A stretch of DNA of 23,508 nucleotides from a virus. Its lineage: Duplodnaviria > Heunggongvirae > Uroviricota > Caudoviricetes. Of the stretch, positions 15,450 to 23,508 are shown piece after piece. Every line of letters begins with the position of its first letter. Position 1 is the first letter of the stretch. The notes under the pieces are model-generated. The model searched no databases and was not told the origin of the DNA. It worked only from the letters and a program-made list of their open reading frames with translations. The position numbers were made by a program, and so were the translations under genes. The DNA lies in the IMG/VR virus record IMGVR_UViG_2663763227_000016; one strand, written 5' to 3'.

Positions 15450-15525
15450 GGCCCTTTAGCTCAGTGGTGAGAGCGAGCGACTCATAATCGCCAGGTCGCT
15501 GGTTCAAATCCAGCAAGGGCCACCA
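15450..15525 (+). tRNA. tRNA with CAU anticodon (Ile2-lysidine type or Met; ileZ-like)
   Basis: Manual cloverleaf: acceptor GGCCCTT/AAGGGCC, D-arm GCTC-AGTGGTGA-GAGC, anticodon loop CTCATAA, T-arm GCTGG-TTCAAAT-CCAGC, encoded CCA. Confidence 0.85.
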
Positions 15526-15532
15526 TCACATA

Positions 15533-15609
15533 CCGCCATTAGCTCATCAGGAAAGAGCGCCAGCTTTCGAAGCTGGTTGCGCGGAGTTCGGGTCCCCGAA
15601 GGCGGTCCA
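15533..15609 (+). tRNA. Possible tRNA-Arg (anticodon UCG), degenerate or pseudo-tRNA
   Basis: Manual fold: D-arm GCTC-ATCAGGAAA-GAGC, perfect anticodon stem CCAGC/GCTGG with loop TTTCGAA, encoded CCA. It has mismatches in the acceptor and T stems, a non-canonical T-loop (TTCGGGT) and starts with C. Confidence 0.45.
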
Positions 15610-15622
15610 TTATCTGTATCCT

Positions 15623-15699
15623 GCGTTGTTAGCTCAGCCGGACAGAGCAATTGCCTTCTAAGCAATCGGTCACTGGTTCGAATCCAGTACAACGCGCCA
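15623..15699 (+). tRNA. tRNA-Arg (anticodon UCU, reads AGA)
   Basis: Canonical cloverleaf: acceptor GCGTTGT/ACAACGC, D-arm GCTC-AGCCGGACA-GAGC, anticodon stem ATTGC/GCAAT with loop CTTCTAA, T-arm ACTGG-TTCGAAT-CCAGT, encoded CCA. Confidence 0.9.
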
Positions 15700-21508: not shown

Positions 21509-21694
21509 TTACTTAATTATGTAATTCATACCCGAACTCTCTGTTGACAGCCTTCTTCTGCAGGCTTCAATAACCCACGCTGAAAAGTTTCCTGAACCTT
21601 TCAGATCAAGAGCGATGTTAATTTGTTCAATCATCTGGTTTGGAAATCGGATGTTGCGGGTTGTTGTTCTGCGGGTTCTGTTCTTTGATGACAT
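21509..21694 (-). CDS. Putative ribbon-helix-helix (Arc/MetJ-like) DNA-binding protein
   Basis: 61-aa ORF with a basic N-terminus, a beta-strand-like RNIRFP segment and two helices (QMIEQINIALDL, NFSAWVIEACRRRL) in the ribbon-helix-helix pattern. GGGGAAA upstream of the ATG; it lies in an AT-rich island. Confidence 0.4.
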   Translation of the reverse strand: MSSKNRTRRTTTRNIRFPNQMIEQINIALDLKGSGNFSAWVIEACRRRLSTESSGMNYIIK

Positions 21695-21879
21695 AATGTT
21701 TCCCCATATTCAGTGTTGCTGATTTGTATTATCTGAAGTTGCTTTTACGTTAATTTGATGCAGATCAATTAATACGATACCTGCGTCATAATTGATTATT
21801 TCTCGTGGTTTGATGGCGTACACACATGTTGTGATAAACCTTATATAGATGATAATCATTATCATTTTCGTGGGTCCTT

Positions 21880-22050
21880 TCCGGCGATCCGACCGGTTAC
21901 GGGGCGGCGACCTCGCGGATTTTCACTATTTATGAAAATTTTCCGGGATCCATGTCCGGTTTCTCTGCAAGTTAACCATATGAAAAATATAAAAACATGC
22001 TTTCCATGAACCGGACATGCGCAAAAAATAGACACTAAAACCGGACATGA
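21880..22050 (+). other. cos site: lambda-type cosQ/cosN (12-nt cohesive end GGGCGGCGACCT at 21902-21913) with a cosB bearing three CCGGACATG repeats
   Basis: 21869-21947 is near-identical to my recollection of the lambda cos junction (GGTTACG|GGGCGGCGACCTCGCGG.TTTTC.CTATTTATGAAAATTTTCCGG). Downstream repeats: CATGTCCGG (21951-21959, inverted) and CCGGACATG (22011-22019 and 22041-22049). Confidence 0.75.
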
Positions 22051-22097
22051 CCGGTTTTGTTGTGATTGTGAGGTGAGAGTTTTTTGCGAGGTGAGGA

Positions 22098-22607
22098 GTG
22101 GCTACGCAGACTGAAGTTGCCAGGCATTTAAGTCTGACCGATCGCCAGCTTCGCAGATTGCAGAAATTGCCGGGTGCCCCGATATCGAATAAGCGAGGGC
22201 AACTGGATCTGGATGCCTGGCGCGATTTTTACATATCGTATCTGAGAAGAAGTAAAAACGATGTGCCTGATGGCGATAGCGAAGACGACTATGAGGAGAA
22301 ATTGCTTATTGCCAGATGGGAACTGACAGCAGAACAGGCTGTTACACAGCAGTTAAAAAATGAGGTGTCAAAAGGAAAACTTATTGACACCGGGTTCTGT
22401 ATTTTTGCCCTCAGCAAGCTGGCAATGGCGTTATCCAGTACGCTTGATTCCATCCCTTTATCCATGCAGCGACAGTTTCCTGATTTAACACCGCGCCATC
22501 TTGACCATCTGAAAACCCTTATTGCGAAGGGGGCAAATCAGTGTGCGCGGGCGGGGGATAAATTACCGGATTTACTCGATGAATATATCAGAGCAACAAC
22601 TGAATAA
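22098..22607 (+). CDS. Terminase small subunit (Nu1-like)
   Basis: 169-aa ORF with an N-terminal helix-turn-helix, alignable by eye to lambda Nu1 (ours ...LPLSMQRQFPDLTPRHLDHLK vs lambda ...LPLSVQRRFPELENRHVDFLK). It sits immediately after cos and before the large subunit. The GTG start has a poorly spaced ribosome-binding site, so the exact start is uncertain. Confidence 0.8.
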   Translation: MATQTEVARHLSLTDRQLRRLQKLPGAPISNKRGQLDLDAWRDFYISYLRRSKNDVPDGDSEDDYEEKLLIARWELTAEQAVTQQLKNEVSKGKLIDTGFCIFALSKLAMALSSTLDSIPLSMQRQFPDLTPRHLDHLKTLIAKGANQCARAGDKLPDLLDEYIRATTE

Positions 22608-22608
22608 T

Positions 22609-23508
22609 ATGATGAGTGCTGTCACAACAGCATTACAGCCCCTGATAAGGGCATTGCCGGTGACGCCAGTTGAATGGGCTGATCAAAATTATTATCTGCC
22701 TAAAGAATCTTCATATGGTGAGGGAGAATGGAAAACGCTGCCGTTCCAGATCGCCATCATGAACAGCATGGGGAATGATCAGATCCGGACTGTTAATCTG
22801 ATTAAATCTGCCCGTGTTGGCTATACAAAGATGTTGCTGGGAGTCGCCGGGTATTTTATTGAGCATAAATCCCGAAACAGTCTGCTTTTTCAGCCCACGG
22901 ATTCTGCCGCTGAAGATTTTATGAAGTCTCACGTGGAGGCGACGATTCGCGATGTTCCCTGCCTGAAAAAACTTTCTCCCTGGCTGGGACGTAAACATCG
23001 TGATAATACCATCACGCTGAAACGCTTTTCATCGGGTGTGGGCTTCTGGTGCCTGGGCGGCGCTGCCGCCAAAAACTACCGTGAAAAATCCGTGGACGTG
23101 GTCTGCTATGACGAACTTTCCTCGTTCGAGCCGGATGTCGAAAAAGAGGGCTCGCCAACCCTGCTGGGGGATAAGCGTATTGAGGGCTCGGTATGGCCAA
23201 AATCCATTCGCGGCTCGACGCCTAAAATAAAAGGCTCCTGCCAGATCGAAAAAGCGGCCAACGAGTCGGCGCATTTCATGCGTTTTTATGTGCCCTGCCC
23301 GCACTGTGGGGAGGCGCAGTATCTGAAATTTGGCGATGAGTCCACGCCTTTTGGCCTTAAATGGGAGAAGGACAGCCCCGAAAGCGTTTTCTACCTCTGT
23401 GAACATCATGGCTGCGTGATCCATCAGTCTGATATTAGACGTCAACTAGTTTTGCCGACTCGCGCCAACTATACTGGCCGCCCCCTTCAGTGCGACATCA
23501 AGTCGCGC
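22609..23508 (+). CDS. Terminase large subunit (gpA-like), 3'-truncated by the window edge
   Basis: Open frame from ATGATG at 22609 to the window end (300 codons, no stop). Strong similarity to lambda gpA N-terminal blocks as I recall them (VEWADQNYYLPKESSYGEGEWKTLPFQIAIMN; WCLGGAAAKNYREKSVDV; GDKRIEGSVWPKSIRGSTPK; FMRFYVPCPHCGEAQYLKFGD). Confidence 0.9.
   Translation, partial: MMSAVTTALQPLIRALPVTPVEWADQNYYLPKESSYGEGEWKTLPFQIAIMNSMGNDQIRTVNLIKSARVGYTKMLLGVAGYFIEHKSRNSLLFQPTDSAAEDFMKSHVEATIRDVPCLKKLSPWLGRKHRDNTITLKRFSSGVGFWCLGGAAAKNYREKSVDVVCYDELSSFEPDVEKEGSPTLLGDKRIEGSVWPKSIRGSTPKIKGSCQIEKAANESAHFMRFYVPCPHCGEAQYLKFGDESTPFGLKWEKDSPESVFYLCEHHGCVIHQSDIRRQLVLPTRANYTGRPLQCDIKSR

Follow-up and report, generated by a model that had tools for sequence, protein, structure and literature searches.

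The window analysed here, the whole 23,508-nucleotide stretch of a Caudoviricetes virus record (IMG/VR IMGVR_UViG_2663763227_000016), contains a segment resembling the lambda cos site and, downstream of it, two overlapping terminase genes. Positions are given in window coordinates and, where useful, in virion coordinates (v), which are the window coordinate minus 21901 and take the first base of the cohesive end as v1. The features at this locus, named by their likeness to lambda, are as follows.

21872–21878, plus strand: cosQ, GGGTCCT, the packaging-termination signal, seven of seven bases as in lambda.
21900–21915, unstranded: predicted cosN nicking site, with the 12-nt cohesive end GGGCGGCGACCT at 21902–21913.
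21916–21946, plus strand: cosN-to-cosB spacer of lambda likeness, with the lambda I2-type CTATTTATGAAAATTTTCCGG.
21951–21961 (v50–60), minus strand: candidate R3-equivalent TerS box, an exact 11-mer, reading CATGTCCGGTT on the top strand.
21973–21985 (v72–84), minus strand: I1-equivalent IHF-like site TAACCATATGAAA, two mismatches to YAANNNNTTGATW.
22009–22019 (v108–118), plus strand: candidate R2-equivalent TerS box AACCGGACATG, an exact 11-mer opposed to R3.
22039–22049 (v138–148), plus strand: candidate third TerS box (R1'), an exact 11-mer in the R2 orientation.
22046–22056 (v145–155), minus strand: fourth box of uncertain role, one mismatch, reading CATGACCGGTT on the top strand, in the R3 orientation.
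22098–22607, plus strand: terminase small subunit TerS, 169 residues, GTG start, Phage_Nu1 match.
22098–22259, plus strand: TerS residues 1–54, winged helix-turn-helix DNA-binding domain by predicted fold.
22140–22163, plus strand: TerS residues 15–22, the putative recognition helix RQLRRLQK, with the Arg20 codon at 22155–22157.
22579–23508, plus strand: terminase large subunit TerL of the gpA type, overlapping the end of TerS and running off the window.

A lambda-like E. coli prophage has its cos site, by homology, at 21872–22056, where a lambda cutting site is joined to non-lambda recognition repeats; the whole of this explanation rests on homology and on comparison of the window with its relatives. 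CosQ begins 30 bp ahead of position 21902, where the cohesive end starts; this is about the distance upstream of the nick expected for a cosQ, and the motif is unchanged across 26 unique E. coli variants and found in nearly all relatives. The cohesive end GGGCGGCGACCT matches lambda at 12 of 12 positions and sits in the context ACG/GGGCGGCGACCT/CG at 21899–21915, with the flanking CG dinucleotides retained. When the window was aligned to the joined lambda ends (NC_001416), 71 of the 75 bases from cosQ to virion bp 45 (21872–21946) were shared with lambda and 69 of 75 with phage 21; for 21902–21946 the figure for lambda was 43/45. The original prediction, which described the cosQ–cosN sequence as lambda almost base for base, was therefore accurate. 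It had also set the start of the mature genome at 21902, which is indeed the first base of the lambda-identical cohesive end; cleavage at cosN, as judged from homology, would make 21902 the first base of virion DNA.

The likeness to lambda extends upstream, with 88% identity to the lambda right end over about 250 bp (21598–21850). A 61-residue ORF of the YlcI/YnfO family (21509–21694, minus strand) lies in this stretch just upstream of cos; in the DLP12 prophage of K-12, ylcI is placed likewise, before nohD. Farther upstream, the genes for the Q antiterminator and a DNA methyltransferase are followed at 15450–15699 by three tRNA genes, whose anticodons are CAT, TCG and TCT; the CAT tRNA is annotated as tRNA-Ile in RefSeq and called tRNA-Met by ARAGORN. 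On the other side of cosN, the spacer contains an IHF-like match at 21931–21943, as it does in lambda and phage 21. Similarity to lambda then breaks off abruptly at 21946/21947. Between 21947 and the start of TerS, the window shares 53–55% identity with lambda, phage 21 and phi80, against 49.5 ± 2.3% for shuffled sequence; being so near the shuffled level, this cosB segment is effectively unrelated in sequence to those of the three phages. Consistent with this, no lambda-form R boxes, CGTTTCC(G/T)TTCT, were found in cosB. Alignment with the lambda and phage 21 cos regions, the check that had been proposed, thus gives a site that is lambda-like through virion bp 45 and unrelated after it, in agreement with the claim of a non-lambda cosB. 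A GATC (Dam) site at 21947–21950 abuts the 5' side of the R3 box (GGGATCCATGTCCGG). Many relatives share it, L016, L018, L020, L026 and L028 among them, and it is missing in L014, L022 and L038.

Three exact copies of CCGGACATG lie beyond the break, at 21951–21959 on the minus strand and at 22011–22019 and 22041–22049 on the plus strand; direct reading and a pattern search confirmed exactly the positions and orientations that had been reported for them. Every copy extends to the exact 11-mer AACCGGACATG (21951–21961, minus; 22009–22019 and 22039–22049, plus). A fourth copy, AACCGGTCATG, with one mismatch, overlaps the third box on the minus strand at 22046–22056 and had gone unnoticed. At a tolerance of one mismatch, all four matches fall inside 106 bp, and the search of both strands found no further copy elsewhere in the 23.5-kb window; 0.43 matches would be expected by chance over that length and both strands, and none of 100 shuffles reached four.

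The three exact boxes (v50–60, v108–118 and v138–148) stand where lambda has its R sites, as had been proposed. In lambda, R3 occupies bp 50–65 and the order is R3-I1-R2-R1, with R2 running opposite to R3 and R1 (Murialdo and Feiss, PMC9026076); the phage 21 annotation (M81255) places R3 at v50–65, I1 at v72–86, R2 at v107–122 and R1 at v150–165. The present site has a box near bp 50–65 and a second, opposed box with an IHF-like site between the two. Measured between motif-core centres (7-bp cores, 6-bp for phage 21), the opposed R3 and R2 motifs are 62 bp apart here and 61 bp apart in lambda and phage 21. The IHF-like site TAACCATATGAAA, after which an A-rich tract extends to about 21996, falls at the I1 position, in keeping with the suggestion that the AT-rich spacer may bind IHF. 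The same consensus scan places I1 at v74–86 both in lambda (TAACTTAATGTTT, two mismatches) and in phage 21 (one mismatch), and the sites of the relatives, at bp 70–73, have no or one mismatch (for example TAACCAATTGATT) and are perfect in several. From these matching positions of box, IHF-like site and spacing, we conclude that the cosB architecture is, as far as its sequence tells, of the complex lambda type with the order R3-I1-R2. One difference concerns the register, as the motif lies 3 bp nearer cosN (CATGTCC at v50–56) than in lambda and phage 21 (CGT(T/G)TC(C/G) at v53–59). Since 3-bp changes in spacing affect lambda (PMC9026076), the docking register of the terminase may be unlike lambda's.

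The right-hand part of cosB is less uniform. The third and overlapping fourth boxes together form the near-palindrome AAACCGGACATGACCGGTTT. The fourth box resembles R1 of lambda and phage 21 in orientation and position; several close variants and relatives (L014, L042, L065, L087) lack it or have it in degraded form. Of these two boxes, the exact, conserved third one runs in the R2 direction, and the poorly conserved fourth copy in the R3 direction, which is that of lambda R1. A slightly longer near-palindrome, 22036–22059 (TAAAACCGGACATGACCGGTTTTG), is followed by a T-rich tail and, on either strand, scores like the hairpin of an intrinsic terminator. A hairpin also lies between R2 and R1 of lambda. 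A direct repeat close ahead of the TerS GTG (TTGTGAGGTGAG and TTGCGAGGTGAG, spaced by 18 bp, 22066–22095) carries a Shine-Dalgarno-like GAGGTGA in each copy; the E. coli variant L033 has a single copy. Two minus-strand ORFs that cross cos (21862–22035 and 21926–22048) are probably not genes, given indels and length variation among close variants; the latter, of 40 residues, is annotated as a hypothetical protein in the phage record PhiR12_1.

The boxes are followed by genes whose products belong to the lambda-type terminase. TerS matches Pfam Phage_Nu1 at 67.9 bits (gathering cut-off 30) over residues 49–150 only. By BLASTP, residues 64–166 align with phage 21 gp1 (40% identity) and residues 73–164 with lambda Nu1 (46%), and the N-terminus remains unaligned. 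The N-terminal domain had no sequence match to lambda, 21, N15, phi80 or Gifsy-1 by BLASTP or by tblastn against 50,697 phage records, and a profile search against PDB sequences returned chance-level hits only. A model of full-length TerS (pTM 0.34) gave nothing significant in Foldseek, and the fold comparison was made with a model of the DNA-binding domain only. On that basis, the N-terminal domain represents a separate sequence family that is predicted to adopt the same winged helix-turn-helix fold as Nu1-type small subunits. All members of the family start with MATQxEVA and are called MATQ-type below. TerL is 71% identical to lambda gpA across 262 residues and is labelled terminase large subunit in identical E. 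coli genomes. The combination of a Phage_Nu1 match, a predicted N-terminal winged helix-turn-helix and an overlapping gpA-type TerL is that of the Nu1 family.

To follow the boxes beyond the window, we assembled enteric loci together with distant ones from genome and viral collections into 83 unique combinations of TerS N-terminus and upstream sequence. A first scan of viral contigs yielded 80 near-identical loci and three more scans used divergent queries; a scan of genome contigs returned six distant loci, none of them enterobacterial. TerS homologues of 60–99% identity occur in E. coli, Klebsiella, Salmonella, Citrobacter and Enterobacter, with the boxes persisting upstream. All enteric relatives keep cosQ, an I2-like TATGAAAATTT, the inverted box, the IHF-like site and the opposed box. 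In these relatives the inverted core TCCGGTT begins 82–84 bp past cosQ (within ±1 bp) and the opposed box lies 53–55 bp downstream of the R3 core. A constant distance of the core from cosN was likewise seen in Escherichia, Klebsiella, Salmonella, Citrobacter, Enterobacter and Aeromonas relatives. The genes upstream of cos vary from relative to relative (lysis genes, KilA-N, an autotransporter, a peptidase) while the boxes persist, indicating that the boxes move together with TerS rather than with the left flank. Among the 26 unique E. coli variants, which share essentially one DNA-binding domain, the R3-equivalent box is unchanged in 11 of 11 columns and the third box is invariant in nine of 11; the most variable stretch is the spacer between the second and third boxes. 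Conservation of the boxes over so many genomes, read from their sequences, implies continuing selection.

The number of boxes is less constant than their position. A third box lies 28–42 bp past R2 in some relatives (L014, L016, L024, L029), and relatives with a short cosB (L018, L020, L026, L028) have two boxes and no third, the TerS start falling at v148 in two-box loci. In non-enteric relatives cosB is simple, its sole element being a tandem TTCCGGTTCCGGTT at the R3 position, with no opposed box. In such simple-cosB relatives from Pseudomonas, Aeromonas and alphaproteobacterial MAGs (L008–L013, L200–L253, L261:130–165, L262:50–70), TerS begins 75–100 bp from cosN. The record of the Aeromonas phage phiARM81ld opens with GGGCGTTAGACC, an end like lambda's; at bp 52–68 it shows CATTTCCGGTTCCGGTT, followed by a MATQ-type TerS with Asn20. 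The cosN sequences themselves differ widely within this one TerS/cosB family, as seen in L029 and L016 (both at 1290–1335) and also in L216–L228: L029 and L016 contain CACCGGGGGTCGTAGGACGCGCAAAAACG, L022 has the N15-type GGGCGGCGTCCG, L020 shares GGGCGGCAGCGT with Gifsy-1, and L028 has GGGCGGAAACCA. From these sequences, the module made of cosB and the TerS DNA-binding domain seems to recombine independently of cosN.

Across the relatives, the boxes take two forms, ..ATG/TCCGGTT and ..(T/C)T/TCCGGTT, that differ at the base immediately 5' of the core (base −1). This base tracks residue 20 of TerS, in the putative recognition helix. Boxes that accompany the eight distinct DNA-binding domains with Arg20 have G at −1 in 87 of 88 exact-core cases; those that accompany the 21 distinct domains with another residue (Asp, Asn, Ser, Thr, Glu, Lys or Ala) have T in 40 of 40. 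The locus L210, with Arg20 and G, is 64–66% identical to proteins with Asn, Ser or Lys at position 20 and 52% identical to the window's domain. Its place among the Asn/Ser/Lys20 relatives suggests that residue and base switched together at least twice; independent lineages behind the co-variation are few, numbering at least two. Because base −1 follows residue 20, TerS is the likely reader of the boxes. Arginine with guanine and asparagine with an A:T pair are standard recognition pairs. When the helix is aligned to those of lambda and phage 21 by its hydrophobic pattern (L18/L21 with I19/W22, our own alignment), residue 20 corresponds to residue 21 of both proteins, an asparagine in lambda and an arginine in phage 21. 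From these sequence comparisons we infer a direct contact between residue 20 and base −1. The original prediction had named repeats that are not conserved alongside the same TerS as a finding that would count against it; the boxes proved to be conserved and to co-vary with the protein.

The same observations bear on whether the repeats have anything to do with packaging. They might instead be operators of another regulator, such as the YlcI/YnfO-like protein, whose small ORF at 21509–21694 is ribbon-helix-helix-like, or the palindrome at 22036–22059, terminator-like in its score and T-rich tail, might terminate or attenuate transcription ahead of the terminase genes. Either arrangement appears very improbable, as the boxes stay with TerS despite changed upstream genes and keep a fixed distance to cosN, and one of their bases co-varies with a residue of the TerS helix. 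The inverted half of the palindrome is, moreover, the least conserved copy, and late transcription has to cross cos to reach the head genes. We therefore retain the reading of the repeats as TerS boxes.

Comparison with lambda places the novelty of the site in its recognition elements. The two sites are nearly identical in cosQ, in the cohesive end and over the first 45 bp, the layout is shared, and identity amounts to 46% over the C-terminal two-thirds of TerS and 71% for TerL. In contrast, the box reads CATGTCCGGTT here and CGTTTCC(G/T)TTCT in lambda, the conserved third box runs in the same direction as R2, which lambda R1 does not, and sequence comparison detects no similarity between the DNA-binding domain and residues 1–70 of gpNu1.

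The original prediction had assigned TerS a phage-21-like specificity, under which the two terminases would package each other's DNA. Architecture and cosN are shared with phage 21, and a global alignment of the cosB segments puts R3, I1, R2 and R1 in the same order; yet identity over cosB is 53.6%, against 49.4 ± 2.3% for shuffled sequence. The boxes of both have CATGTC and GG in common; those of phage 21, however, are CATGTCGGnCCTT (CATGTCGGnCC, M81255), whereas the box here has an extra C in the core and another 3' half, and stands 3 bp nearer cosN. Two base pairs, bp 56 and bp 59, are reported to be critical for specificity (PMC4669245). In a motif alignment, the box agrees with phage 21 at bp 56 (G, where lambda has T) and with lambda at bp 59 (C, where phage 21 has G). 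In the protein, Arg20 aligns by eye with Arg21 of gp1, but the recognition helix (RQLRRLQK here, RTIERWQS in gp1) shares only three of eight residues, the DNA-binding domain is unrelated in sequence and aligns neither with gp1 nor with any solved TerS sequence, and the 40% identity to gp1 is confined to the C-terminal part. A specificity shared with phage 21 is thus very improbable, and this part of the earlier claim was not supported, given an alignment limited to residues 64–166, the dissimilar helix and the different box core and register. By their sequence, the boxes look like distant relatives of the lambda and phage 21 R boxes that match neither.

Further systems have been compared in the same way. 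In N15 and Monarch, one TerS/R-box specificity goes with either a simple (one-site) or a complex cosB (R3-I1-R2-R1), and the MATQ family splits alike; the DNA-binding-domain sequence of the N15/Monarch proteins, however, is unlike that of MATQ-type TerS. N15 R3 is GAGGTTGTTGTT at bp 48–59 (PMC4669245); this type of R3 is absent at bp 48–59 of the present site, and a box pattern search found no remote rR2-like copy inside the TerS gene here. We considered GGACATG at bp 42–48 of N15 (L006:42–48) as an R box and rejected it because of the published R3 position, bp 48–59 (PMC4669245); it adjoins R3 in the orientation opposite to the window's R3 box and is probably a coincidence. Gifsy-1 also has a lambda-like cos with three R boxes, but these are of the AGATCCGTTCTTCTT type and its TerS has a lambda-family DNA-binding domain starting MNVNKKKLAEIF. 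A PICI-type cos, as in the Rpp–TerS system of EcCICFT073, was rejected as well, since the window has no rpp gene, carries its own TerS and TerL downstream of cos and has phage lysis genes upstream.

Taken together, we put at roughly 85% the probability that this is a lambda-type cos whose non-lambda cosB boxes are read by a MATQ-type TerS with its own packaging specificity. By analogy with lambda, IHF would bend the DNA at 21973–21985, and a dimer of the TerS DNA-binding domain would dock on the opposed boxes at 21951–21961 and 22009–22019. The C-terminus of TerS would hold the gpA-type TerL over cosN, where nicks 12 bp apart would generate a left end starting at 21902. The third box may contribute affinity, and Arg20 of the recognition helix would read the G:C pair just 5' of the TCCGGTT core. 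The combined outcome would be a packaging specificity unlike those of lambda, phage 21, N15 and Gifsy-1. The packaging groups in the literature are lambda/phi80, 21, N15/Monarch and Gifsy-1 (PMC4669245, PMC9026076). We lean, by a modest measure, towards regarding MATQ-type TerS with TCCGGTT boxes as a further such group, orthogonal to lambda, 21, N15 and Gifsy-1 and equipped with a natural switch between sub-specificities, in which a single residue and a single base pair change together (Arg20 with G, Asn20 or Asp20 with T). Since the N15 terminase packages lambda DNA (PMC4669245), some cross-packaging between phage 21 and a MATQ-type cos could nevertheless occur. No description of a MATQ/TCCGGTT group was found in the packaging literature (PMC4669245, PMC9026076), which is weak evidence as it covers the searchable literature only; searches with the box motif strings returned p53 response elements and primers only.

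A separate question is whether the window's copy of the site is still in use. The segment 21947–22270, comprising cosB and the DNA-binding domain, is present at ≥80% coverage in 1,163 of 5,426 complete E. coli genomes, frequently as two or more copies. Among 50,697 phage records it occurs in five isolated phages only, PhiR12_1 to PhiR12_5. The cos site could therefore be an intact relic in a defective prophage, unused save perhaps with the matching terminase of a related helper. The APEC O18 prophage, 100% identical over the queried 1 kb, fits this picture: its portal gene is frameshifted and the genes past the tape-measure are fragmentary. In that copy (L260:22995–24588 and L260:35968–39668), the portal frameshift and a fragmented tail-fibre region accompany an intact cos and terminase, and the prophage is probably defective, as judged from its sequence. 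Against a relic, the four boxes, cosQ, cosN, TerS and the visible part of TerL are all intact in the window, and selection on the boxes appears to continue. The head and tail genes lie outside the window, and the defects described are those of the APEC O18 copy. The PhiR12 records, whose hosts are E. coli K-12 or C, have the same module, with cos and TerS at 99% identity, so deposited phage genomes do carry it; no paper on these phages was found in the searchable literature. We consider disuse a possibility with the smaller share of the probability, and by sequence comparison the window's copy may be unable to package on its own.

For the lambda-like phages as a family, the machinery and the architecture are known and the recognition pair is new; the mechanism would be the well-known lambda one, and the finding extends a known system. 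The co-variation of residue 20 with base −1 offers a directly testable protein–DNA contact for a class of terminases. Lambda's own TerS is difficult to study in vitro. If the proposed pairing is correct, the MATQ TerS and its box would be usable as an orthogonal, tunable cos/terminase system. Packaging specificity sets which co-resident prophages, plasmids and islands a terminase mobilises, and the joining of differing recognition sites to lambda cohesive ends predicts which elements can and cannot be cross-packaged. Prophages with common lambda cohesive ends would, if this is true, still be unable to package one another's DNA.
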